In this document: positions 5,513 through 54,612 of the stretch, piece after piece
Layout of the letters: each line of letters opens with the position of its first letter
Position numbering within the stretch: position 1 is the first letter of the stretch
From: Acidobacteriota bacterium
Lineage (GTDB): Bacteria > Acidobacteriota > CAIWXX01
NCBI GenBank assembly: GCA_040755995.1
Contig: JBFMAF010000024.1
Coordinates: forward strand, 192,001-256,000
DNA: 64,000 nt
Direction: 5' to 3'
The notes under the pieces: generated by a model
What the model was told of the DNA's origin: nothing
The model's input: the letters and a program-made list of their open reading frames with translations, nothing else
Databases searched by the model: none
Position numbers and translations under genes: made by a program

Positions 5513-5723
5513 TCTGGGAGTGCGCGGGTGGCCTGGATGAACCACTGGCTCGTGAAGCCGCTGTGGTCCACCCTGGTTTGCGAAAGGGCCGAATGGCACC
5601 TATCTCTTCGAGCTTTGTGCTCACCCGGGTGGGCCGTTGGGGCGGCCAAATACGACGGCGGGCTTTGTGCCCATAGCTGAACTCGGCCGGCCCCGTGATG
5701 AACGGCCCCCTCGCACTCCCGGA
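5513..5723 (-). ncRNA. Candidate IS110 bridge-RNA-like structured non-coding region
   Basis: Closing stem GGGAGUGCG-A-GGG-GGCC / GGCC-A-CCC-G-CGCACUCCC; internal hairpins GGGC-ACAAA-GCCC, GAGC-ACAAA-GCUC and GGCU-UCACG-AGCC; lies directly upstream of the IS110 transposase. Confidence 0.55.
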
Positions 5724-5990
5724 TGTTTCGGCGTTTATCCATCACGCCCCTCTCCCGGTAATGGAAGAATGACGCAACAGGTCCCCGCCGATCAACCCGA
5801 GACGCAAGCCTGTAGAAAATCCTCTGCCGCAGTGCGTCATGCCCCCCCGTGCCCCCGCCCTCACCTCGCACTCTGCATGACCGCGGCACTCTGGTGCTCC
5901 CTATCCCACCTCCACGCCTCCATCCCCACACCGCGTGATCGCCTCCACACGCTCTCACCATCGCCAGTCGCATGGCATTCTCATACCAGG

Positions 5991-8157: not shown

Positions 8158-8869
8158 GCACGGGGCAAGCGTGACCCATGGCCCATATGTATGGTGCTCG
8201 GGATACCACGCAGCGCACCGAGCTGGACTACACGTATGTTTAGCCGATGGCCCAGGCACGATCCGCAACACGGTCACGAAACGCTGCTACCTGCCCACCC
8301 AGCCCACCGCCTACGCCTACGACTCCTTCGGCCAACCCACCGCGAGCACCACGCTCCCCACGGCCGCCCCCGCCTACGCCTTTACCGGCCGCGAGTGGGA
8401 CGCCGAAAGCGAAACCTACTTCTATCGGGCGCGTCACTATGACGCGAGAACGGGGAGGTTCACCGGAGAGGATCCACTTCCGGATGTCAATCTCTATGCA
8501 TATGTGAAGAACAACCCGGTCAAGTACATCGATCCATATGGTATGAGCGACTGCGCTCTTGAGTTCAGGAACTGCCTTTCCGATGCCAACGCAGCCTTTT
8601 CGGCGTGCATGGAAGGAGCACGCAGGGGATTCTTGATATGCTCCTTTGCAGCGGTGCTCATGTGTTCGACGCTGGGCCCAGAAGCGTTCCCGCTGTGCTT
8701 TAAGCTAGCCGAGGGCGCATGCATTGTAGGCTATACAGCCACTGTGGCGTTCTGTGGTGTCAAATTGGTCACAGACAACGCGATTTGCCTGGCGAACTAC
8801 ATCAAATGCCGTTATGAGGAGAAGCACGGGAAGTGCGAGATCAAGCAGCGCAGGGGCGGTAAGGCATGA
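8158..8869 (+). pseudogene. Orphan Rhs module 3: frameshifted core remnant + hydrophobic Cys-ladder CT (8546-8869)
   Basis: ADGPGTIRNTVTKRC...FTGREWD...NPVKYIDPYGM; the upstream HGASV/PMAH/DTTQRTE segments align to the core only with frameshifts. Confidence 0.85.
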
Positions 8870-41100: not shown

Positions 41101-41919
41101 TCATTGGGAGCTCACGGCGTCACGCGATTGCACGTCTGCGATCGAATCCAGCGGAGCCTGAGCGCGAGCGACCAATAGCTCCTCCAGTCTCAGCGCGGAT
41201 GGGTATTGATCGAGATGAAGACCCTGTGCGAGGAATCGTTCGAACCCGCCGCCGGCCTTCTCGGGCTCACCGCTGCATTTTTCACTCACACTGTCCAGCA
41301 CCCACCTCAGCACCGAAACGGCCTGTTCGGGTTCCTGTGCCAGGCCCAGCTCTCCGATCATTGCGCCCAGGGCATCGAGCGCCTCGAGCTTGACCTGCCC
41401 GGGTCCCATCGCGGCGAGGAAGCTCGTGAGTCCGATCAGGAGATCCCTGAAGTCCTCCAGCACCTGTCCGAACCATCCGTGCTCTCGCCACTCCACACGG
41501 TCCACCGTCTCGAACCAGGCACGGAATGATCGAGCCGGCAGGACCAACGGTTGCACCCTGGCCTGGTCGGTGCTCATCCCCGCTGCAATGTCGGTGGCCT
41601 TGAACAGGAGACGGCTCCAGAGGTTCGCATAGAACTGCTGCATCGGCGGTCCGAAGATGCAGCGCAGGAGGAACTCCCGGTCAGGCGACATCTTGATCCC
41701 CGTGTAGATTGCCTGGACCAGCGACTCGAGGACCGCCGCGCGACTGCCAGCGTCGCGAGAGCGTTCGACGGCCTGGAGCAGGTGCTGGATCGCTTCCTGG
41801 ATCGGACGCATCTCCGCCGGAAGCTCCAGGAACCAGCTAATACCATCCCTGACGCCCTGCACGTCGCCGGCAGAGGCGGCCGTCATGAGATCCCGCGGTG
41901 TCAGCATGAGTGTCGTCAT
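41101..41919 (-). CDS. Hypothetical alpha-helical protein (272 aa)
   Basis: GGAGGAGG SD before ATG 41919; no family recognised; preceded by the island motif. Confidence 0.7.
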   Translation of the reverse strand: MTTLMLTPRDLMTAASAGDVQGVRDGISWFLELPAEMRPIQEAIQHLLQAVERSRDAGSRAAVLESLVQAIYTGIKMSPDREFLLRCIFGPPMQQFYANLWSRLLFKATDIAAGMSTDQARVQPLVLPARSFRAWFETVDRVEWREHGWFGQVLEDFRDLLIGLTSFLAAMGPGQVKLEALDALGAMIGELGLAQEPEQAVSVLRWVLDSVSEKCSGEPEKAGGGFERFLAQGLHLDQYPSALRLEELLVARAQAPLDSIADVQSRDAVSSQ

Positions 41920-41978
41920 CGCAAGTCCTCCTCCAGAGGGCGAACCCGTTCGACCTGAGGGCGCCCTCATAATAGGTA

Positions 41979-42005
41979 GATTTGGCGAACAGGCCACATC
42001 TTGCG
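41979..42005 (-). promoter_or_regulatory. Island motif copy 1 (putative ECF promoter)
   Basis: Minus strand CGCAAGATGTGGCCTGTTCGCCAAATC; A/T tract upstream, ATGAGGG downstream. Confidence 0.7.
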
Positions 42006-42215
42006 TCCTCTGGCGAAAATTTTTTTCAGGCACCGGGCTCTGATCCGAGGGGTCCGTCACTCACCAGGCGGGAGGCGCTGGACACTGACACACGGAGACG
42101 CGGAGAGGAGGACCGGCTTCGCCTTCGCCTTGCCGCCACTTGAATTCCGGCCGCCCGCCTGCTAAGAATAATGCACGTCCCGGGTTCGTTTCGCTGGCGC
42201 CGATAACTGGGGGGG

Positions 42216-45200
42216 ATGATCGCGATGGAGGAGGGCTGCTCTCGCTCTGCACCCCCACACCGCCGGGCGAGGGCTCGGGTGCCTACCCAGGTGTGCTGTG
42301 GATCGGCCTTGTTGGCTGTGCTCGGTTCGCAGTCCGCCGATCTCTCGTCTCGGGCGCCCCGCGCCATTCATGTTGGAGAGACGCTTGAGGCGGAGATCGC
42401 GGACCCAGAACACGCCCGCCTCCGGCCTTCTTTGGGCCCAGGGCACCGGTTCATTTTCGACGGCAGGGCAGGGCAGAGGCTGACCATCGGCGTGGAGTCA
42501 TTCGAGTTCGATTCGTATCTGATTCTTTTCGACCCGGCAGGCCGCGAGATCGCATTCAGCGATGACAGCGCCGGTTTCTCCAACGCGTGCATTCGGAGGC
42601 AGCTCCCCGCGGACGGCGAGTATCTGCTTGTCGTCTGCGGCGCGACCGCTGATCACCTCGGGACGTACTGGCTCACGGTACGAGAACGCGATCACGAGCC
42701 GGATTACAGTGAGCGGGCAGCGACTGCGTACTACCGTCGAGGACTGGCATGGGCATCAAGCCGCGGGAGCCGGCGCGCCGAGAGCTTCCTCAATCTGGTC
42801 ATGGGCAGGTACTATCGCGAGCGCGGGCGCTGGGGGCAGGCGGAGGACTGCTATGCCCGGAGTCGCGCCGCGGCCCAGACAGCCGATCTTGAGGTCGCGT
42901 TGTGCGCGGCCGCAATCGAACGCGGCAGGCTGATGACTCAGCGCATGCGCTATGACGCGGCCATCCGGGAGTTGCTGCGCGCACTAAGGCTGAGCGCCTC
43001 GCTGCGCGCGGCTGAAGACGCGCAGGCACAGGCCTACGCGCAGATAGGTGACATTTATCGGTCCATCGGTCGCTCCCCCGTTGCTTCCGTCTGGTACCGC
43101 AAAGCCGCAGAAGCGACATCTCCCGACGGCCCGGCTTCGACCCGAGCCAGGGTTTATTCGTCCCTGTTCAAGTCATCACTTACATCCGACAGGGACGAAG
43201 CATTCGGGTATGCGAAGTCGTGCCTTGCGATGCGAGATGCAGTTGATCCCGTGCAGCGTGTCACGATCACCGCCGATTGGGCGCGTGTGGAAGGCGCGAG
43301 GGGGCAGCCAGAGGAAGCCCTCAGATTGGCCGAAGAGGTGTGTCGCGCAGCGCGTTCGCTCGGCTGCCGGGACATCGAGATCTCCGCGCTCTCACTTGAG
43401 AGCCTGATCGCTTGGTCTCTGCGCGACATGGATGGGACCATCAAGGCCGCCCGATCCGCCGCCGCCCTAGCTCGGCCGGAAGACGAAGATTCCGGGTCCC
43501 TTCGCGTCGCGCTCCAGATGCAAGCGAGCGGCGAGATGCTCCGGGGCGACTACCAGGCGGCCCTTGCGTCGTGCCTTAAGGCGCTCCCACTAGTGGAGCG
43601 AGGCTGGGAACGTGAGCCCGTTCCTGAAGTGCGGCAGGGCTATGCGTCGCAGACGAGGGGGCTTTGCACCCAAATCATAAGATGTCTGGCCGCTCTGAAT
43701 GCACAGGAGCCGAAGACGGGACATGCTCGCATGGCCTTTGATTTCGCTGAGCGCACCAGATGCCGGTCGTTGCTCGAGGAATTGCACCGTGACGAGTTCG
43801 AGCGTCAGGGGATGCGCGCAGCGCTCGAAGCTGAACAGACGCCACTGATGGTGCGCCTGTCCGCCCTCAGCCGTCAGCTCGCAGTCGCTCGTAGTGACGA
43901 TATGAGCGATCAGGGATTGCTGGACCGGCTGGAGGAAGATCGCGCGAGGCTCGTGGCGCAGCGTATGCTTTTGGAGGCGAGATGGAATGGGCACAGTACT
44001 TGCGAGAGGGCGAATTTGCCGGTCCCGCTGACCTGTGACCAGCTACAGTCAGGCTTCCTGCGGCAGCGGCCCAATACCGCCATCCTCGTCTACCAGCTGG
44101 GCGTCAAAGAGAGCTTCCTTTTCCTTCTCAGCCGGAGCGACGTGCGCCTCCTCACTCTGCCGGACTGGAACTGCATCGGTGGGCTCGTCAGGCAATGGCG
44201 TTCCGCCATCGTCCAACAGCTTCGCTCAGATGCCGGTGACGTGCTTCAGGTGCGCCACTACGAGGATATCGCTCACAAGCTCTATGCGACATTGGTGCAG
44301 CCGGTGGCGGACCACATACGAGGAAGAGATCTGGTTTTCGTCGCCGATGGAGTCCTGCACGAATTGGCGTTCGAGAGTCTCGTCACGTCCAGAGCTGATG
44401 ATGCGAGCAGCTATGCCGGCCTTCGTTATCTGGTTGAGGACCACGCGATCACCTATGCTCCGTCCGTCACGATTCTGGTCGAGGCCGAGCGCAGGGCAAA
44501 CGTGCGGCCTCCACCCGCCAGGAATCTGCTGCTGGTGGGCGACGCGGTGTTCACACCGGATGATCCCCGCGCCGGTGTTCCCCCGTCTACGCCGTCCGTG
44601 AGCTCCAACACGGGAGCAGGCAGAAGGGCGATGGCACTTCGTGCCGGCATCGGGAGGCTGCCGGCAACACGTCAAGAGGTCCTGGGCATCTCGGAGCTGG
44701 CCGAGAAGAGCAGTTGGCATTCGACACTCTGGATGGGATTCGACGCGGCGGAAGGAAGGCTCAAGACCACGCGGCTGTCGCAATTCCGCATCGTGCACTT
44801 CGCGACTCATGCAACCGCAGACCCAGTGGACGGCGAGTTCTCGGGCATCCTCCTTTCGTATGATCGCGACTCCTCGGACGAGGACGGGCTCCTTTCCGCT
44901 GCTGAGGTGAGAAGCCTGGATCTCGATGCCGAACTTGTCGTGCTCAGCGGCTGTTCCACGGCCGCGGGCCAGCGGACAGGCGCTGAGGGAGTAATTGGGC
45001 TGAGTCGCGAGTTCATGATCGCCGGGGCTGAGCGCGTGTGCGCATCGCTTTGGGATGTCGAAGACGGGTCCACACAGCGGCTAATGGGCACCCTATATGG
45101 ACACCTCCTCTCCAGAGGCGACCCCCCGGGTTTCGCGTTGCGGCAGGTGAAGATCGAACTCCTGTCCGCTGGTCTCTCACCCAGTCGCTGGGCCGCCTTC

Positions 45201-45221
45201 GTCTTGGCGGGAGCGCTGTAG
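42216..45221 (+). CDS. PPC + TPR-like + CHAT (caspase-like) protease
   Basis: PPC (FDSYLIL.DP.G..IA..DD); AFDFAERTRCRSLLE; HFATHA (His 44808) and VVLSGC (Cys 44952); ASLWDVED; WAAFVLAG. Confidence 0.92.
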   Translation: MIAMEEGCSRSAPPHRRARARVPTQVCCGSALLAVLGSQSADLSSRAPRAIHVGETLEAEIADPEHARLRPSLGPGHRFIFDGRAGQRLTIGVESFEFDSYLILFDPAGREIAFSDDSAGFSNACIRRQLPADGEYLLVVCGATADHLGTYWLTVRERDHEPDYSERAATAYYRRGLAWASSRGSRRAESFLNLVMGRYYRERGRWGQAEDCYARSRAAAQTADLEVALCAAAIERGRLMTQRMRYDAAIRELLRALRLSASLRAAEDAQAQAYAQIGDIYRSIGRSPVASVWYRKAAEATSPDGPASTRARVYSSLFKSSLTSDRDEAFGYAKSCLAMRDAVDPVQRVTITADWARVEGARGQPEEALRLAEEVCRAARSLGCRDIEISALSLESLIAWSLRDMDGTIKAARSAAALARPEDEDSGSLRVALQMQASGEMLRGDYQAALASCLKALPLVERGWEREPVPEVRQGYASQTRGLCTQIIRCLAALNAQEPKTGHARMAFDFAERTRCRSLLEELHRDEFERQGMRAALEAEQTPLMVRLSALSRQLAVARSDDMSDQGLLDRLEEDRARLVAQRMLLEARWNGHSTCERANLPVPLTCDQLQSGFLRQRPNTAILVYQLGVKESFLFLLSRSDVRLLTLPDWNCIGGLVRQWRSAIVQQLRSDAGDVLQVRHYEDIAHKLYATLVQPVADHIRGRDLVFVADGVLHELAFESLVTSRADDASSYAGLRYLVEDHAITYAPSVTILVEAERRANVRPPPARNLLLVGDAVFTPDDPRAGVPPSTPSVSSNTGAGRRAMALRAGIGRLPATRQEVLGISELAEKSSWHSTLWMGFDAAEGRLKTTRLSQFRIVHFATHATADPVDGEFSGILLSYDRDSSDEDGLLSAAEVRSLDLDAELVVLSGCSTAAGQRTGAEGVIGLSREFMIAGAERVCASLWDVEDGSTQRLMGTLYGHLLSRGDPPGFALRQVKIELLSAGLSPSRWAAFVLAGAL

Positions 45222-45277: not shown

Positions 45278-45466
45278 TCAGGGCTTGCTGGGACTACAGC
45301 AGTCCGCCCCGAACAGACAACAATCGTCGTCCAGCGTCATGGGTGGGTTGATTGTGCGCACTCCCGCTTGGTTGTGCTGCAAGGGGCTTGGTGACGGCGT
45401 CCACGCTGGCGAAGCCAGCAGAAGTGTACCCAGCAGTCCCAGAATGATCCATCGTACTACCGACAT
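45278..45466 (-). CDS. 62-aa secreted peptide precursor with C-terminal CC-x5-CC
   Basis: AAGGAGG SD; signal peptide MSVVRWIILGLLGTLLLASPAW; tail DDDCCLFGADCCSPSKP. Confidence 0.7.
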   Translation of the reverse strand: MSVVRWIILGLLGTLLLASPAWTPSPSPLQHNQAGVRTINPPMTLDDDCCLFGADCCSPSKP

Positions 45467-45579
45467 GGTTTCCTCCTTGTTGAATGAATGCCGTTGACCG
45501 ATCGCCTCGGCCGGCGGCGGTTGTGTTGTTTGACCGTGTTCCACCTGTAACCGTTGTTCATGTCCCTTCACCAAAGGAT

Positions 45580-45606
45580 GATTTGGCGAGAAGGGCACAT
45601 CTTGCG
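45580..45606 (-). promoter_or_regulatory. Island motif copy 2 (putative ECF promoter)
   Basis: Minus strand CGCAAGATGTGCCCTTCTCGCCAAATC, 24/27 identical to copy 1; A8 tract upstream, GTGAAGG downstream. Confidence 0.7.
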
Positions 45607-45636
45607 TGCGGAGCATAGTTTTTTTTCCAAGGCGTC

Positions 45637-45985: not shown

Positions 45986-46225
45986 ATGCGCACGATCATC
46001 ACTCTCGCGCCGGAAGACAAGGCGTGGCTCGACCGGGTGGCACGACAGCGTCACGTCCCGATGACTCGGATCGTCGCCCAGGCAGTCAAGGAGCTTCGAC
46101 GTGAATGGAGCTTTCTCGATCAGGATTTCGACCAGATACTTGACGAGACACGCGGCATCTGGAAACGAGCTGGCGGATTGACCTACCAGCGAATGCGCCG
46201 GGCCGAATGGGACAGGCGACAATGA
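45986..46225 (+). CDS. RHH/CopG-type antitoxin (VapB)
   Basis: MRTIITL..EDKAWLD; GIWK...GLTYQRMRRAEW; ATGA overlap with the PIN gene. Confidence 0.85.
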   Translation: MRTIITLAPEDKAWLDRVARQRHVPMTRIVAQAVKELRREWSFLDQDFDQILDETRGIWKRAGGLTYQRMRRAEWDRRQ

Positions 46226-46590
46226 GGCTGCTGCTCGATTCAGTGATCGTCATCGACCACTTCAACGGAGTCTCGAATGCTACAGCGTACCTCGCTGCCG
46301 TGCGAACGGAGGCTGCCGTGTCGGTGATAACTCGAGCGGAGGTCCTGGCGGGGCTCGATGACCTCGCTGCAGTCAAGGCCCAGCGTCTCCTCGACTGCTT
46401 CCCCACGCTGCCCATCGACAGAGAGGCGGCAGACCTCGCTGCGAGTCTCCGGCGCAGCCACCACTGGAGGCTCCCCGACGCATTTCAGGCTGCGCTCGCG
46501 CTCAGACACGGGCTCCTCCTCGTGACCCGGAACACGAAGGACTTCCCGCCTTCCAAGCACCGCTTCGTCCTCGTGCCGTATCGACTGTAG
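46222..46590 (+). CDS. vapC: VapC PIN-domain toxin
   Basis: LLDSVIVID; SVITRAE; LPDAFQAA; VTRNTKDF. Confidence 0.92.
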   Translation: MRLLLDSVIVIDHFNGVSNATAYLAAVRTEAAVSVITRAEVLAGLDDLAAVKAQRLLDCFPTLPIDREAADLAASLRRSHHWRLPDAFQAALALRHGLLLVTRNTKDFPPSKHRFVLVPYRL

Positions 46591-49500
46591 GTGTCCGGAG
46601 GATGCCCGCTCCGATCCAGCGAGCAGGAGCGTGGTCGCGCACGCAGCGGGTACCGCAGACGGGGCACGGAGGTGTGGACGCGGTCGTCGGCTGCCTGGAC
46701 CCGCCATGCACGTCCTCGCAGTTGTGCGACATCTCATTCTCGCCCCGGGCGCCGGTCACGACTCTGACTATGCTGAAGGTCGCGTCGCTTTCGTCCCACG
46801 GATCCTTGTCCAGGTCGCTCACTCGTGTGAGACAGTTCGTAGATGTCGGAGTCACGACCGGCCACTGGCAACTTCCCGTGTTGACGATTCCCGCCTTGAT
46901 CCGGCTCCAACTCTGCCCGTTGTTCCGAGAAATGTCAACGTTCACATTCCGCACGTTGCCGCCGGTCGTCCAGGCGATCGTTGCCGTCGTTCCCACCTTG
47001 AGCTGCTCGCCTCCGTTCGGCGATGTCACCGTGATGCTCGGCCGGATCGAGAACGGCTCCTTCGTCTCGCCGCAGAACTTCATGTTCGCAGCATCGCTCA
47101 CCCGCAGATAGCACTCCGCGGCCTCCGGCTCCGTCACGATCCAACTCAGGCTTCCCTCGTTCGTGTAGGTCGTGTTCTTCGGGTCGATGTGCTTCCAGTC
47201 GCCGCCATCCCGCTTGATCTGTATCTTCACGTTCTTCGGCGTCCCGGACGGGCTCCACTTGATCGTGTAGCTCTTCCCGTTCCTCAGCACATCGCCGCCC
47301 ACCGGCTTCTTGATCGTGAAGCCGTCGTTGATCGGGAACTTCGCATCGGAGGTGTCGGCTGTGACACCGCCGGCGTCTTTGATCTCGATCAGGCATTCGG
47401 TCGACGCTGGGCCCGTGACCGGCCATGGCAGCTCGCCGCTATTGGGCACCGATTCGCGCCCCGGATGCAACGACTCCGAGTAAGGCGCCTTCCCGGTGCG
47501 GCTCAGCGAGACCTTCACGTTCTGAATCCGAGTCATGTCGCCGGGGTTCCACTTGATGGTCTGCTTCGTCCCGATCGTTAGCCCGTCGTTCTTCCCATTC
47601 GGCCATTCCACCTTGATCACCATCTGCTGCGGCACGATCGAGAATGGCTTGCTCATGGCCGACGGATCGGCGTCCCCTGGATCTTGGATACGGACGCGCC
47701 AGCCGTCCCCAGAAAGGCCCTCGGGCACCGGCGGCACCTCGCACAGATAGTGCCCGCTGTTCTCGCAGGATGGCACGACTTCGATCGTCTCCAGATCGTG
47801 GTCGGGCAGGTTCTTGATGAGGTCGATCCTCACGTGTTGGCACAGCGACACGCTCGTGGCCACCCACTCGATCCTGTACTTGTTGCCGACACCAAGCAGC
47901 TCTCCTCCTTCGGGTCTGGTCACTCTCAGAGTCGCTGGCGCGGCCACGATGCGGAAGTGCTCGTCGCTCTCGTCCTTCACGCCAGCCGTGATCTCCTCCA
48001 CGCGGATCCGGTACGCGTTGCCCGGCGCGTCGTCAACAATCCACCGGCAGGAAGTCACATAGCCCTTCTCTGCAATGGGCCGCACGCGCTCCGGGCTGCT
48101 AGAGTCGTCCACAAGAGAGATCCTCAGTCCCTTGCCGCTCGCGAAGTGTCCGGTCAGCTCCCAGCTGATCATCACCTCGGTGCCCGCCTGAAATGTCTGC
48201 CGTTCCAGCTCGGTGTTGTGTGGGGGCACCCTGCCGCCGTTGGGATAGAGGACCTTGATGGCTCGATTCGACGGCTCGATCGTGAACGTGCCATCGCTCA
48301 GATCCTGTGTGTCTTCATTCCCGGTGTGAATCCGTATCAGGCACTGCTCGGATGGCGCGTTCGGCACGCTCCACTTGAACGACTTGCTCTTCGGATCGAG
48401 CGCGTTGGCTCCGTCCACCGCCTTCCAGTTGGTCCCGTTGTCTGTGGAGTACTTGATCGCCATCGTCTGCGTGCCGAAGTCACCATCGGCGATCCACACG
48501 ATGTTGTGCTCGGTGAGCGCTTCCCAGTGCTCACCGCCGTTCGGCTCACGCACGGTGAGCTTCTTCTGGACGATCGAGAACGGCGCATCGCTCGTGTCTT
48601 CCTCGGGCCCGGCCGTGTTGCTGATGCGGATGTAGCATCTCCCGGCGGCGGTGTCGGCAGTCCACTTGCACTGGCGTGCGGCCGCGTCGAAGGATGACTT
48701 GATGACCTTGATCTGAGTCGCGTTGCCCACCGAGATGAGCAGCTCGATACGCACCGTGGCGATGTTCGACGTGGCTCGCCACTTGATGGTGGTGGACTTC
48801 CCCACGATAAGCGCTTCGCCTCCGTTGGGGTACTCCACCACGATCTCGCCGGTCACAACGGTGCCCTGCGGAGACCTGTCCGTCTTGAGACGCATCCCGC
48901 GATCGTCGTAGAGGTAGCTCGCAAGGAGCGGCAGCTCTGCCGTGCCCGCGTCCGGTGTCGTGTCGCCGTCCATCTCGGCCAGCAAGCTCGACATGTCGCT
49001 GCCCGCCTCCGCATTCATCTTCCGCACCTCCGCGAGGCGGTTCTGATTGTCCCAGACATACTGGTAGACGCCGTCGGACTTGAGATTGCCGCGGCCGTCA
49101 TAGGGCAGGCCGATGATCTGGTTCTTCCCGTTGAAGGTCTGCACCAAGGGCGAGCTCGTGCCCTCGGTGATCTGCCGGGCATTTCCCAGTCCGTCATACT
49201 GGTAGGCGATCGACGGCACTCGGCCGGCGCTGTTCGGAGTGTACTCCACCTTGGTCAGCCGGTTCAGGTCGTCGTACTCGAAGGTCGCGTCGAGCTGGGG
49301 ATTGGTGTCGGTGATCGACGTGATGTTGTAGTTGCCGTCATAGCCGTATACAGCGCGATAGAGGTTCTTCGTGGAATTTGCGAGCCGGGCACTGCCCAGG
49401 TGACCTGTCTTGAGGTAGGCGGCGGTGAACGTGGTCCCGTTGGCGAACCCGATGCTGGTCGGCTGCTTGTAGTCCGCATAAAGCGCAGAGTCGACGATGC

Positions 49501-51300
49501 GCGCGCCGTTGCGCCTCACGCTGTCCGGGGCGTCGAAGCCGGTATTCGTGTACGTGATCCTCTGGCCATCCGGGTAGACGACTGCGCTGAGGTTGTTGCT
49601 GGCATCATGCTCGTACGCCAGCGTCTTTGCAGACATTCCCGGGATAGTGAGCGTCTCATGCTCGACAGACCCCAGCGGATTGTACGAGATGCCGGTCCGC
49701 TTCCACCCCTTCGTCGCGCTCTCGACCGAGCGGAGCGTCCCGTCGCCCGGGTCGTAGCCATAGTTCAGGTCATCGTCCCCGGAATTCAGGGTCTTGAGCT
49801 GGTTGAAAGTGTTGTAGCCGTAGTTGATTGCGGTGGTCGCCCAGACCTTCCGTTCGAGGTTGCCCGTGGTGGGGCTGTACGTGTAGCTGATCGTCCCGGT
49901 TTCCGGGTGGCTCTCGCTGGTGACATTGTCCATGCCGTCGTGGGAGTACCTCTGGGTCCGGCCGCCGCTGAGGTCGGCCCGCAGAAGCCGCCCGATGTCG
50001 TCATAGTAGTACGCCGTGGAGACGCCATTCGGTTCGGTGGTGAGCGTGATGCGGCCGGGCAGGCCGTCGTACCGGTATTTCCAATGCTTGCCGTTCGCGT
50101 CTGTCACATCCTTGAGGCCGTTCTCGAGACTCACGATCGTGGTCTTGTTCCGGGGGTCCGTGGTCTGCACAACGTCGCCGGCTTGATTGTAGATATAGCT
50201 GTAGACGTCCAGCGGGTCGGTGCTGCCCCTGGATTCCGCAACCACCCGGCCCTCCTTGTCCAGCTCCTTCCTGTACTGGAGCGTGGTGCCGGTCTTGAGG
50301 TCTTTCTCCGTGTGCCCAAGGGCGCGCCCGAGACCATCCCAGTACTTGACGATCTGCTTCTGCTCCTGAGTGACGGTTGCGCTTCTGCCGTTCTCGGCCC
50401 ATCGCACCGTGATGTTGGCGAACTGCCCGGGCATAGTGACGTCGGTCACGCGGCCCAGGTTGTCGTAGGAGAAGCCCATCGTCCCGCCGTGCTGATTGGT
50501 TTCCGTCAGAATCGAGCTGTCGTGCGGGCTGATGGTTCTACTGAATACGGTGAACCCATCCTGCCATTTCAGAAGCGACTGCACTCCGTGGTCGTACTTC
50601 GCGATCTGTTTGCCGGCGGAGCCCGGGAGGTCCGTCGTGATCGTGATCAGTGCCGGATTCGCCAGCTGGTTCTCGTAGCCCCAGGTAAGCCAGTTCCCTG
50701 ACCCCACCCACCGCTCGACCTGCGTGACGGCGCCCGTTGGGAAGTCGTACGTCGACTTCGTCTCCTTGAGCTTCCCCGACGATCCGGTCGTCGTCTGGTT
50801 ACTGACGTATGAGAGCATGTAGCTGTCTTTGAACCTCTGGTCGCTCTCGAATGCGTAGCTGTATGTGTCTGTGTAGCTGGCCGCGTGGGGGCCCGTGCCG
50901 CTCGAGTGCGTGATCGATGTGGGGAGCCCGCGCTCGTACGGCCCGGTGCGGTCGTAATAGTATGCGTCGATCGTGGTCTGAGCCGGAAGCGTTGTGCGCT
51001 TCACGCTCCTTCTGAGAGGAACCCATATGGGCGCACACTCGTTGAGATGATTGATATCGCCGATCACGTACCTCTGCCAGCCGTACCACTCATGATAGCT
51101 CGTGTCCCCGTACCACTTCTCCGTGATCACAGGGTCCAGCGTGACGTCGCCGGGCAGACCGTATTTGGCGTAGGCCTTCTGTGTGGCCGGTCCGGTCACA
51201 ACTACCGTGTCATCTCCTGCCAGGTTGAATCCTGGATACTCGTAGCTCCATTCCGCGGTCTCGCCCTCGCCATCGACGATGGCCCTCCGCCATACCACGC
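46502..51300 (-). pseudogene. Rhs/YD-repeat protein fragment with seven PNGGE-type Ig-like repeats; lacks own start and Rhs core end
   Basis: YD repeats (YDNLGRVT, HPETG, YDDLNRL, YLYDDRGMRLK), then seven repeats V..PNGGE....G....I.W...D.SD..F.I (46767-48847); no PxxxxDPxG motif. Confidence 0.8.
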
Positions 51301-52227
51301 GCGATCCCCATGGTCCGCTCTTACCACCGCGGTGAGCTCCGCGCGCTCGGGGCTCATCGCCACAATCGACAACAAGCACGCGACGCCGTCGAAATGCTCC
51401 TCCGGGTGGAACCTGAACGAAAGCCTCCCAGGCGCCGACTGTCTCACCGAATACGGCCCGGCCGTGGCTCCGGGCTCCGCGCTTGCGATGGCCAGCACAC
51501 GGTCGTCGTAGATCACATCGAACGACCCATACGACGGCCACACGCGCGCAGCGACGATCACACGCACGGAGAACTCCTCGCCTGCGGCCGTCTGGATCTT
51601 GCGCGGATCGAAGGCAACCGCCGCTCGCGCTGGAAGAACGTTTTGTACACTCGGCGCCGCGGTCGTCGGGACTGAAGGGGCCGGTGGGCTCGCACATCTC
51701 CGCTCCTCTGCGAGCACCGCTCCAGCACGCCCTCCGGCCGGCGCACCACCGCCAGCGACGGCCTCGAGTGGCTCCTCCATCGCTCGCAAGCGGATGGCGG
51801 CAATCTGGCGCTTCAAGAGGCCATGATCGTTGAAGGGATCCGTGCGGACGGCTTGCGCATACGCCTGGTATGCAGCCGCAAGCTGCTCCGAGCGCTCCAG
51901 CTCTTCGCCGCGCGCAATCAGAGCCTCCGCTCGCTGGGCGATGGCGGAAGCCAGAGCGGCCGAGTACTTCGGATCGCCTGGATCATGCTTCAGAGCTTCC
52001 TGCAGATACCCGATTGCATCCTCGTGCTGTTCAGCACGTTGCGCTCGCATCCCACTGTTGTAAGCACGCGACGCCGCGCACCCCGCGCTCGCGAGGAGCG
52101 CGAGTATCGTCAGCATGCACAAGCGGATACGGCGTCTTCTGGCAGATCCACCCGTGCCGCTGGGCCTCGCCGCGGACCTTTCGGCTCTCCCTACCCCTTC
52201 TGTCACCTCAGTCACATGTCCCCTCAT
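51202..52227 (-). CDS. Lipoprotein with TPR and cohesin-like domains (start uncertain; 3' end possibly disrupted)
   Basis: Lipobox LASAGC; TPR helices; GEEFSVRV.......FDVIYD..VL......G. Confidence 0.7.
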   Translation of the reverse strand: MRGHVTEVTEGVGRAERSAARPSGTGGSARRRRIRLCMLTILALLASAGCAASRAYNSGMRAQRAEQHEDAIGYLQEALKHDPGDPKYSAALASAIAQRAEALIARGEELERSEQLAAAYQAYAQAVRTDPFNDHGLLKRQIAAIRLRAMEEPLEAVAGGGAPAGGRAGAVLAEERRCASPPAPSVPTTAAPSVQNVLPARAAVAFDPRKIQTAAGEEFSVRVIVAARVWPSYGSFDVIYDDRVLAIASAEPGATAGPYSVRQSAPGRLSFRFHPEEHFDGVACLLSIVAMSPERAELTAVVRADHGDRAWYGGGPSSMARARPRNGATSIQDSTWQEMTR

Positions 52228-52233
52228 ATATAT

Positions 52234-52260
52234 AGTTTCGCGAGAAGGCCAATTCTCGCC
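52234..52260 (-). promoter_or_regulatory. Island motif copy 3 (divergent)
   Basis: Minus strand GGCGAGAATTGGCCTTCTCGCGAAACT, 19/27 identical to copy 2; T tract upstream, ATGAGGGGACATG downstream. Confidence 0.55.
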
Positions 52261-52407
52261 GGAGAAACAAAAAGAACTTTCCTGAGCAGAATCTGCAGCC
52301 GAAATTTGGCCCAGGGAATGGGCGCGCTTGTGGGAGGAAACGCCGGACTGTGCACTACCACTTGGCGCTAAGTTATGCATGACTATCATCTCCATCGCAC
52401 ACGATAC

Positions 52408-52436
52408 AATATAGTACTTGTGGAGACCTTTGTCAA
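52408..52436 (-). promoter_or_regulatory. Sigma70-type promoter
   Basis: TTGACA-17 nt-TATATT on the minus strand. Confidence 0.65.
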
Positions 52437-52854: not shown

Positions 52855-53649
52855 TCAGCTCGTCGATCGTTCGATTATCGCCTTCAGTCTCTCCGCCTGC
52901 CTCCGTAGCTCGCCGTTCGAATCGATGATCTTGCGGAGCTCGTCGAGTGCAGCATCGGGCTTGTTCGCGCCCAGGTATGCCAACGCCAGATAGTATCGAG
53001 CGCGTTCGAGAGACATTCCGGCGCTCGTTTCTGCGGCACGCTTCAACGGCCCAATTGCATCCGCGGCCTGACCCATGAGCACAAGAGAGACGCCCTGGTA
53101 GAAGTGCGCCTCAGCGTTCTCCGGGTCCAGCCTGGCTGTCACCTCCAGCTGTTTCGACGCGGACGCGTAGTCTTGTTTCAGGTACGAGGCCATGCCTTCA
53201 TCGAATGCCTCCCAGCCGCCGGCACCACGAAGCACTGGGCGGCTTGCTGGAGGTACATAGGCCGCCTTGGGCACGACCATCCCGGTCCAGAGCCTGGTCT
53301 CAGATCCTGATCCGCGGCCTGACAAGACGAAGTATGCTGTCACCGCCCCGCCGGCGACCAACAGAACGGAGGCTGCCAGTAGCGCCGCCCGCCCGCGCCA
53401 GGCCCATGCTGGCGGCATCCTTTGCGGCAGATCGACGGCTGGAATCTGCTCTGCCCGCGCTGCGCCGCGTAGCACGGCCTGGCGATGATTTCGCAGGGTC
53501 GCCATATGGGGGGCCATCGCGAACACCTCTTCGTGACAGTACGCGCATTCCCACATGTGATCGACGAAGGCCTCGCGCTCACCCTCGTCCAGCATGCCCA
53601 GCTCATAGCGGGTTATCAGCCGACCGACTGCAGGGTCAGTACATTTCAT
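52855..53649 (-). CDS. Zinc-finger (zf-HC2/ZAS) transmembrane anti-sigma factor with extracytoplasmic TPR
   Basis: HMWECAYC (HxxxCxxC); TM LAASVLLVAGGAVTAYFVL; VLRG; TPRs; directly downstream of the sigma gene. Confidence 0.88.
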   Translation of the reverse strand: MKCTDPAVGRLITRYELGMLDEGEREAFVDHMWECAYCHEEVFAMAPHMATLRNHRQAVLRGAARAEQIPAVDLPQRMPPAWAWRGRAALLAASVLLVAGGAVTAYFVLSGRGSGSETRLWTGMVVPKAAYVPPASRPVLRGAGGWEAFDEGMASYLKQDYASASKQLEVTARLDPENAEAHFYQGVSLVLMGQAADAIGPLKRAAETSAGMSLERARYYLALAYLGANKPDAALDELRKIIDSNGELRRQAERLKAIIERSTS

Positions 53650-53726: not shown

Positions 53727-54281
53727 TCATTGCGGCCTCCCAGAGAGTATCTCCCGCAGCGCCTTGCGGCACCGAAGCAGCCATTCGTCAACGCGGGCTC
53801 TCGGGGCCCCCAGACTCTCAGCCAGCTCCCGCACGCTCACCCCCTCGCATATTGCGAGAAGCAGCGCCCGGCACCGAGGCCTGCTCTCGCCCAGAAGCTC
53901 GATGGCGCGCCGGACTGCGGGGTACATCAGCGCGGCCTCGATCTGGGGCTCCTGCGACCTGCCCCGGTCAACGGACTCTGGATCGCCAGAATGCAGCTCC
54001 ACCTGTCGCCTCTTCCTTTGCCTCTCATAGTAGTAGTAATTGCCTATGATGTTTCGGAGCACAGCATCGGTATACTCCAGCAGCCCTTGGCGTGTCTGGA
54101 TTTCCGAGAAGTGCTCCTGGACCACCATCAATGTGTCATGTACGACGTCCTCTAAATCTCCCTCACTTACTTTAGATTTGGCGAGAAAGCGGTATCTTGC
54201 GCGCAAATACAAAAAAAGTTTCTCCCGGGCCTCCGGGTCGCCCGCCCGCGCCAGGTAGAAAAGGTCGGCGATCCTACCCAT
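53727..54281 (-). CDS. ECF-type RNA polymerase sigma factor
   Basis: ARAGD.EA.E.LF, DLEDVVHDT, LRN...NY (region 2); G.S.RELA..LG....V...L.RCR..LR (region 4). Confidence 0.9.
   Translation of the reverse strand: MGRIADLFYLARAGDPEAREKLFLYLRARYRFLAKSKVSEGDLEDVVHDTLMVVQEHFSEIQTRQGLLEYTDAVLRNIIGNYYYYERQRKRRQVELHSGDPESVDRGRSQEPQIEAALMYPAVRRAIELLGESRPRCRALLLAICEGVSVRELAESLGAPRARVDEWLLRCRKALREILSGRPQ
54175..54201 (-). promoter_or_regulatory. Island motif copy 4, inside the sigma CDS
   Basis: Minus strand CGCAAGATACCGCTTTCTCGCCAAATC, 22/27 identical to copy 2; T7 tract upstream, GTGAGGG downstream. Confidence 0.65.
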
Positions 54282-54612
54282 CGCAAGTCTGCTCTGTGGT
54301 CATCGCGTCTGATCTACCCTCCAGCAGGCCGGGGACCAGCGACTCCAACGGCGCTCCCGGGAGGCCGCAGCGGCGGCGGCGGACGCTCTCCTGTTCACAG
54401 CATTCCTCGGGGCATGGACAACGGCCGTATTCTAGCACCACTCGCGTGCCCCTGGTCGAACGAGCCTCGCCTCCTGGTCATCCTCGCTCCGGGCTGTTGG
54501 GGCCTGCTGCGGCGCATTGACAAGTGCGGCACATCTCTGGGAATCTAGGGACTGCAGGCGCGACTGGAGGTGTCGTTTGGAATCTGCGAGGTCGGGGCCC
54601 ACGCCGGAGGAC

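Follow-up and report, generated by a model that had tools for sequence, protein, structure and literature searches.

A promoter-like motif inside the coding sequence of an ECF-type sigma factor gene, facing a probable anti-sigma gene in Acidobacteriota and other phyla

The gene of an ECF-type sigma factor in the window, a 64,000-nucleotide stretch of DNA from an Acidobacteriota bacterium, carries a copy of a two-box motif within its own coding sequence, and the match of this copy to the others in the genome is beyond chance. Comparison with relatives indicates that the internal site is real, selected at the nucleotide level and a feature of the whole family. We believe, with a probability of roughly 0.7, that this sigma factor reads the motif as its promoter, and that the internal copy fires together with the targets and would thereby resupply the anti-sigma factor without amplifying the sigma factor.

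The internal site and its surroundings in the source genome

The sigma factor is of the short ECF (group 4) type, a sigma70-family protein that has only regions 2 and 4. It matches TIGR02937 with 57.1 bits over residues 17-179, above the cut-off, and no NCBIfam subfamily cut-off is reached among the matches listed. The core of the internal site, GCAAGA-N12-GCCAAATC (54175-54200, minus strand; Table 1), lies within codons 27-36 (bases 54174-54203, minus strand), which correspond to nucleotides 79-108 of the coding sequence and encode RARYRFLAKS, in agreement with the preliminary description, which had placed a motif copy about 80-107 nt into the gene. The AT-rich codons, the T tract and the GTGAGGG 3' of the -10-like box (54160-54166, minus strand) that it had pointed out are likewise present, and the GC content around the site is 0.45, against 0.63 for the genome. 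A second AT-rich patch, at about 54000-54080, encodes NIIGNYYYY and holds no copy of the motif.

Table 1. Features of the window discussed in the text (positions count from the first letter of the window)
Feature	Position	Strand	Remarks
ECF-type sigma factor gene	53727..54281	-	184 aa; PF07638 (E 2e-5), TIGR02937
Internal class A motif	54160..54217	-	T tract, -35-like box, -10-like box and GTGAGGG; codons 22-41
-35-like box GCAAGA	54195..54200	-	codons Ala28-Arg29; putative -35 by its spacing
-10-like box GCCAAATC	54175..54182	-	codons Ala34-Lys35-Ser36; putative -10
T7 tract 5' of the -35 box	54211..54217	-	A/T tracts also in non-coding copies; possibly UP-element-like
Predicted internal transcription start	54166..54169	-	presumed from the usual ECF spacing
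Extended -10-like element TGCTAGAAT	54429..54437	-	5' of the sigma gene; candidate housekeeping promoter
Probable anti-sigma gene	52855..53649	-	N-terminal CHCC zinc motif, one hydrophobic stretch, C-terminal TPRs
Class B copy	52219..52276	-	upstream of TPR protein gene
Class A copy	45565..45622	-	upstream of peptide ORF
62-aa ORF	45278..45466	-	signal-peptide-like N terminus, CC-x5-CC; likely target
TPR-CHAT protease gene	42216..45221	+	1001 aa; convergent with peptide ORF; HFATH and SGCST motifs
Class A copy	41964..42021	-	upstream of 272-aa ORF of no known family (41101-41919)

Besides the internal site, the window contains three further copies of the motif, all on the minus strand. A matrix made from these three found about 18 sites of two kinds in the 7.7-Mb genome; on this first-pass matrix the internal site ranked 14th, and the gap at the low end was unclear (18.3 against 17.8 bits). 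The sites outside sigma genes were split by eye into 10 of class A and 6 of class B, with one matrix per class, and both class matrices are separated from the background by wide gaps. When held out, the internal site scores 44.9 bits on the matrix of the 10 other class A sites, and the best non-member elsewhere among 15,465,530 genome positions reaches 11.5 bits, which is why we consider the internal site a real copy of the motif. All 16 class A and B sites precede plausible gene starts, some of them overlapping mechanical upstream extensions of ORFs. The distance from the five-base -35 core to the four-base -10 core is 17 nt in both classes and in the sister clade described below, and the layout is that of an ECF-dependent promoter, with two boxes and a free spacer of fixed length 5' of target genes. 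The window thus holds three class A copies and one of class B; the latter had been counted in the preliminary description as the same motif, but it scores 60.2 bits on the class B matrix and 2.3 on that of class A.

The two classes match two sigma factors. A second close sigma factor of the source genome, on contig C36, is 39% identical to the window sigma and has a site of class B in the corresponding codons (59.7 bits on B and -3.3 on A, held out), whereas the internal site of the window sigma, also held out, reaches only 16.7 bits on B. The C36 cassette is of the same kind, with an anti-sigma gene, a TPR-CHAT gene and a convergent peptide ORF with CC-x5-CC. Judging by the motif scores, the gene of each paralog holds the class seen before its own peptide gene, with one motif class per paralog. 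Predicted from codons 28-36, the regulons of the two paralogs comprise 11 and 7 sites in this one uncultured genome. The first genes behind 11 sites were scanned for domains: four encode PAS hybrid kinases, one each CheW, CheR, a protein with sigma region 2, an ion channel and a PKD protein, and two have no match.

Some sites are arranged in ways that go beyond this pattern. The TPR gene after the anti-sigma gene has, upstream, both its class B site and an 11/12 sigma70-like promoter (52408-52436, minus strand), and the systems of the window and C36 paralogs look cross-wired at this gene. On contig C33 of the source genome (L003, about 8550-8700, minus strand), sites of class B and class A stand in tandem, 102 nt apart, before one secreted-looking 223-aa ORF with no Pfam match. 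On contig C3 (L207:1892-2488, minus strand), the gene behind a class A site encodes a 199-aa protein that matches sigma70 region 2, a possible sigma cascade.

Upstream of the window sigma start there is no class A or class B site of at least 10 bits, by either matrix in the whole-genome scan, as the preliminary description had stated for the window. The neighbouring gene on this side is divergent. The extended -10-like element TGCTAGAAT is 234 nt away from the internal -35 box; a two-box promoter scan made no call at it. Comparable extended boxes are present in five out of five loci of family f17 (see below), and upstream housekeeping -10 boxes are enriched in two clades (4/6 and 5/5, with 1.0 and 0.8 expected), but not in the sister clade (4/20, 2.4 expected). 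In several loci such -10-like boxes lie only 50-100 nt before the internal -35 box.

Downstream, the site faces a gene for a 264-aa protein that is probably a ZAS-type (class I, zinc) anti-sigma factor, as suggested by its N-terminal C/H..HxxxCxxC pattern and its position adjoining the sigma gene. Its domain matches are to TPRs, and zf-HC2 stays just short of the cut-off (21.9 against 22.2 bits). Among 30 downstream proteins, which were chosen by an HxxxCxxC-like pattern, H31, C35 and C38 of the C..HxxxCxxC motif are invariant and C3 is present in at least 90%. Profile matches are to 3hug_B, RsiW and, weakly (E 0.014), DdvA. The gene starts 551 nt downstream of the -35 box (430-600 nt in the family), and the 77-nt gap between the two genes contains an SD-like sequence. 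With a lenient pattern, used without a control, such a sequence is present in 38 of 47 loci, so that the anti-sigma factor could be translated independently from a transcript begun inside the sigma gene. The scan for terminators called no such site in the stretch from the motif to the anti-sigma gene.

The peptide gene of the window has counterparts throughout the cassettes seen. In all five, an ORF of 60-80 aa that begins like a signal peptide and contains CC-x5-CC is convergent with the TPR-CHAT gene and lies behind a motif copy (besides the window, L001:7848-8042, plus strand; L028:496-693, plus strand; L029:15448-15681, minus strand; and, read by eye, L031 at about 5600-5790, plus strand). 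The window peptide has no Pfam match; it is a candidate signal, substrate or inhibitor of the CHAT protease. In three cassettes, back-to-back divergent motif copies or part copies (L001:7570-7700, L028:250-400, L029:16250-16350) occupy the interval that separates the peptide gene from a gene for a PAS hybrid kinase. In the window, the interval between the anti-sigma side and the peptide gene is occupied by a 1731-aa ORF with RHS repeats followed by Ig-like repeats (46502-51697, minus strand) and a PIN-domain gene (46207-46590, plus strand).

Codon choice and co-variation in relatives

Homologue searches with single proteins returned the query alone or nothing. For scanning loci, an 8-row alignment was not strict enough, and a 4-row alignment was used instead; it gave 58 loci, mostly distant ECFs, of which 15 were inspected and 5 carried into later analysis. 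Within the phylum, 401 genomes were scanned and matches found in 31. A scan of genome contigs yielded 32 loci titled Acidobacteriota, Zixiibacteriota, Ignavibacteriales, LCP-89 and others. Together with 11 earlier stretches these gave 50 sigma matches, of which 36 were kept after 10 with low scores or gaps and 4 near-duplicates had been dropped.

Throughout this family, the internal site is found at one fixed place at the 5' end of the gene, and homologues conserve the nucleotides there as well as the residues. The Arg codon in the -35 box is AGA or AGG in 31 of 32 loci, compared with 103 of 451 Arg codons in the gene body and 9 of 54 in nearby N-terminal codons. The Lys codon in the -10 box is AAA in 29/29, a weaker test because AAA is frequent among N-terminal Lys codons anyway (37/50). 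In the sister clade, with 20 loci and pairwise protein identities down to 35%, the codons are fixed as GAA (20/20), AGG (20/20) and GCA (18/18) against backgrounds of 0.27, 0.03 and 0.03, and the motif columns are the top four of the 126 columns tested. Family f17 (L037, L038 and L040-L042) likewise has rare codons fixed at the motif positions, a strong codon signal; a relaxed scan found 14 and 10 matches against 6 and 1 in controls, and the search for a non-coding target copy brought up no clear one.

A few genes do without the site. It is absent in two of the 36 loci (L031 and L168) and has a degenerate -10 box in L162, so that by this comparison it appears dispensable in some members. One of these genes is a second sigma gene of genome G001 (L011, L031; L031:9145-9813, plus strand), with GC-rich codons at the place in question: its GC3 there is 0.79, compared with 0.38-0.54 in six genes that keep the site. 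The L031 cassette, a natural control, retains the anti-sigma, CHAT and peptide genes and a peptide-side motif of another -35 type.

The internal site also changes together with the non-coding copies. The first G001 sigma has its -35 box altered to GAGAGA, with an Ala to Glu change in the protein, and the three exact matches in that genome are the sigma coding sequence and two non-coding sites with the same altered -35 box. In genome G002, a hybrid pattern (A-type -35, B-type -10) has exactly two matches, one in the sigma coding sequence and one upstream of the peptide gene, and none in the control. In the sister clade, internal sites reach 25-36 bits on the same strand in a leave-one-out analysis, in which none of the 20 loci has an upstream same-strand site above 2.9 bits; a second copy of at least 10 bits lies downstream in 13/20. 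These downstream copies are at the end of the anti-sigma gene, some 25-50 nt before an SD and ATG, where a promoter is ordinarily found.

For the family as a whole, a whole-locus test for the best match was noisy, the internal site being no better than control codons in most loci, and narrower tests were therefore used, with a test interval that was picked after the whole-locus test. With each gene's own site as template, and at least 13 of 17 bases required between 340 and 60 nt upstream of that site, 10 of 34 loci have a match on the opposite strand and none of 34 on the sense strand (two loci had too little flank). A blind test, in which the two variable -35 bases were masked to avoid circularity, found a divergent upstream partner in 10 of 32 loci and none in the tested interval of the other 22. 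Of the masked bases, 19 of 20 match the internal site (permutation p 1e-4), and 13 of 14 still do after four close kin are collapsed to one (p 0.002), p-values that overstate the case because kin are not independent. Loose sense-strand hits of at least 8 bits occur in two of 32 loci, neither with the gene's own variable bases. By these comparisons, the -35 variant of a gene recurs in the non-coding copies close to it. The divergent cognate copies (L143, L148, L149, L153, L156, L157, L159, L161, L165 and L167) are on the opposite strand, 160-260 nt upstream of the internal site, and several stand before genes whose products look secreted and are very large (about 570-1730 aa).

At least seven -35 variants exist across the family, scattered on a tree with many unresolved forks. 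A link between the variant and residues of region 4.2 is only suggestive and is confounded by kinship. The preliminary description had named kept nucleotides, low GC3 at the site and co-variation with regulon motifs as signs by which dual coding could be recognised in homologues, and these are what the relatives display.

The proposed circuit and its alternatives

The preliminary description had read the internal copy as a dual-coded promoter for the anti-sigma gene that provides negative feedback. The zinc-motif protein encoded downstream and its SD-like sequence fit this, and we retain the reading in conditional form as to the firing of the site and its main job. We propose that the sigma and anti-sigma genes are transcribed at a basal level from a promoter that the sigma does not read, probably a housekeeping one. 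The membrane anti-sigma would then be inactivated, probably by proteolysis; the gene for a TPR-CHAT protease travels with the pair in the family. Free sigma would turn on its targets together with the internal site, and newly made anti-sigma would recapture the sigma. The internal transcript would start about 115 nt into the coding sequence, with a leader of about 520 nt, and yield anti-sigma only. Because of this start, it could not give full-length sigma; presumably it lacks the first 38 or so codons, including helices of domain 2. If activation destroys the anti-sigma, as it does for DdvA and RseA, resupply would reset the switch.

Two features sit less easily with this. The leader of 430-600 nt is long compared with 62-66 nt in Corynebacterium glutamicum and 228 nt in Escherichia coli, and simple resupply leaves the constant 5' placement of the site unexplained. 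That placement would be accounted for by the main rival explanation, in which the site is a cognate promoter that chiefly brakes transcription of full-length sigma: holoenzyme bound 80-110 nt into the gene would occlude or collide with polymerase, and the anti-sigma mRNA would be a by-product. The upstream -10-like boxes that come close to the internal -35 box in several loci agree with such a brake, but the candidate box of the window is distant. Moreover, the site faces an anti-sigma gene that has its own SD-like sequence, and it is as near to consensus as ordinary target promoters, which suits firing. As the chief function we consider a brake unlikely, though it can coexist with resupply.

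It is considerably less probable that the motif serves a different factor, such as a dimeric regulator, as operator or promoter and puts the pair under its control. Class B sites do show partial palindromy (4-7 of 7 bases), and PAS hybrid kinases are encoded beside or under several sites. Palindromy is, however, weak in class A (3-6 of 7) and in the family (1-6 of 7), so that a palindromic operator is not a general explanation; in addition, all clades have the two-box layout with a free spacer, and the motif class tracks the sigma paralog. We hold it to be just as improbable that the purpose of the internal transcript is an N-terminally shortened sigma of about 133 aa or a regulatory leader RNA acting as a decoy or sponge. 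An in-frame TTG/ATG does occur about 40 nt past the predicted start, and 13 of 36 loci combine an in-frame ATG or GTG at this place with an SD-like sequence, but the window and 23 of 36 loci have no such SD, so that a truncated sigma is not general, and the SD-like sequences that were found mostly arise from Gln-Glu codons. For a leader RNA, there is no Rfam family match (one hit, E 0.64).

The 5' ends of coding regions are often AT-rich, and N-terminal Lys codons are frequently AAA, but that the motif merely results from protein constraint combined with such codons is highly improbable and largely refuted by the Arg codons, the 33-bit gap to the background, the GC-rich codons of L031 where the site is lost, and the co-variation with non-coding copies, including the masked bases.

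Relation to known systems and significance

The closest known arrangement is that of sigH-rshA in C. glutamicum. As described in PMC3489674, sigH-rshA is transcribed from four housekeeping promoters, and a SigH-dependent promoter within sigH serves rshA only, from a start 62-66 nt before rshA; the authors propose that this allows fast shut-down of the response, and state that the arrangement differs from those in S. coelicolor and M. tuberculosis. The systems would share a cognate promoter within the sigma coding sequence that faces a ZAS anti-sigma gene, and the family resembles sigH-rshA in having no cognate promoter upstream of the sigma gene (in the genome-wide scan of the source genome, in 0/34 family loci and in 0/20 sister-clade loci). 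They differ in that the site in C. glutamicum is at the 3' end of the sigma gene, whereas here it occupies codons 27-36, 430-600 nt before the anti-sigma gene, at one fixed place across records of Acidobacteriota, Zixiibacteriota and Ignavibacteriota. The anti-sigma factor here also has a predicted membrane stretch and TPRs.

In E. coli, the promoter rseAP3 is located within rpoE, at a distance of 228 nt from rseA; it is conserved and read as negative feedback (PMC8595263, PMC1312014, PMC12633294). Here too, the cognate promoter would be within the sigma coding sequence, with a membrane anti-sigma and a long leader. E. coli, however, also has an upstream sigmaE promoter that forms a positive loop, of which no counterpart was found here, and the position and motif of rseAP3 differ from those of the present site. 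A housekeeping promoter lies inside sigM of B. subtilis, for which our literature search gave no confirmation. Other intragenic promoters are the subject of PMC5758882 and PMC13171946.

A third point of comparison is DdvS-DdvA of Myxococcus xanthus (PMC11506125). Both systems combine an ECF sigma, a CHCC zinc anti-sigma, a membrane span and TPR-CHAT chemistry; the CHCC centre is described in DdvA and RsiW (PMC11506125). DdvA is fused to CHAT, however, whereas no fusion is found here and CHAT is encoded by the separate 1001-aa gene. According to the same source, ddvS is expressed from its own promoter upon ddvA deletion. The putative targets found here are signalling genes and a peptide, as opposed to CBASS/CRISPR.

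The logic of negative feedback itself has thus been published, for sigH-rshA and in part for rseAP3 (PMC3489674, PMC8595263, PMC1312014). What appears new in the sequences is the fixed 5' position, the breadth over phyla and the co-variation with each member's targets. Our search of papers outside subscription journals brought up none that deals with this family or describes a cognate promoter in this 5' position, and the accessible part of the PMC7826278 supplement gave no match for Zixibacteria or internal promoter. That study predicts ECF target promoters from motifs upstream of the sigma gene (PMC7826278), and a family with internal sites would therefore be scored as without a promoter. 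Given the fixed position and the co-variation, a member's promoter can instead be read from its coding sequence.

A bolder view, which we put forward tentatively and regard as doubtful, is that the family inverts the self-amplifying loop of ECF sigma factors. The promoter template would be kept in one fixed helix and would serve for resupply and as a brake, and amplification would be moved outside the cell by a sigma-driven Cys-rich peptide and a caspase-like protease. If this is true, a change of specificity must alter residue 28 along with the DNA-reading residues of the sigma and its targets, and ten codons would suffice to read any member's promoter.

The natural matched pairs of sigma and promoter, with at least seven -35 variants, may be of use for work on specificity and for orthogonal switches, and the family offers a clean case of dual coding in which the protein sequence of a regulator is tied to the DNA it would read. 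Negative-only wiring has so far been known from C. glutamicum; our data suggest that a family can have it as a fixed design.
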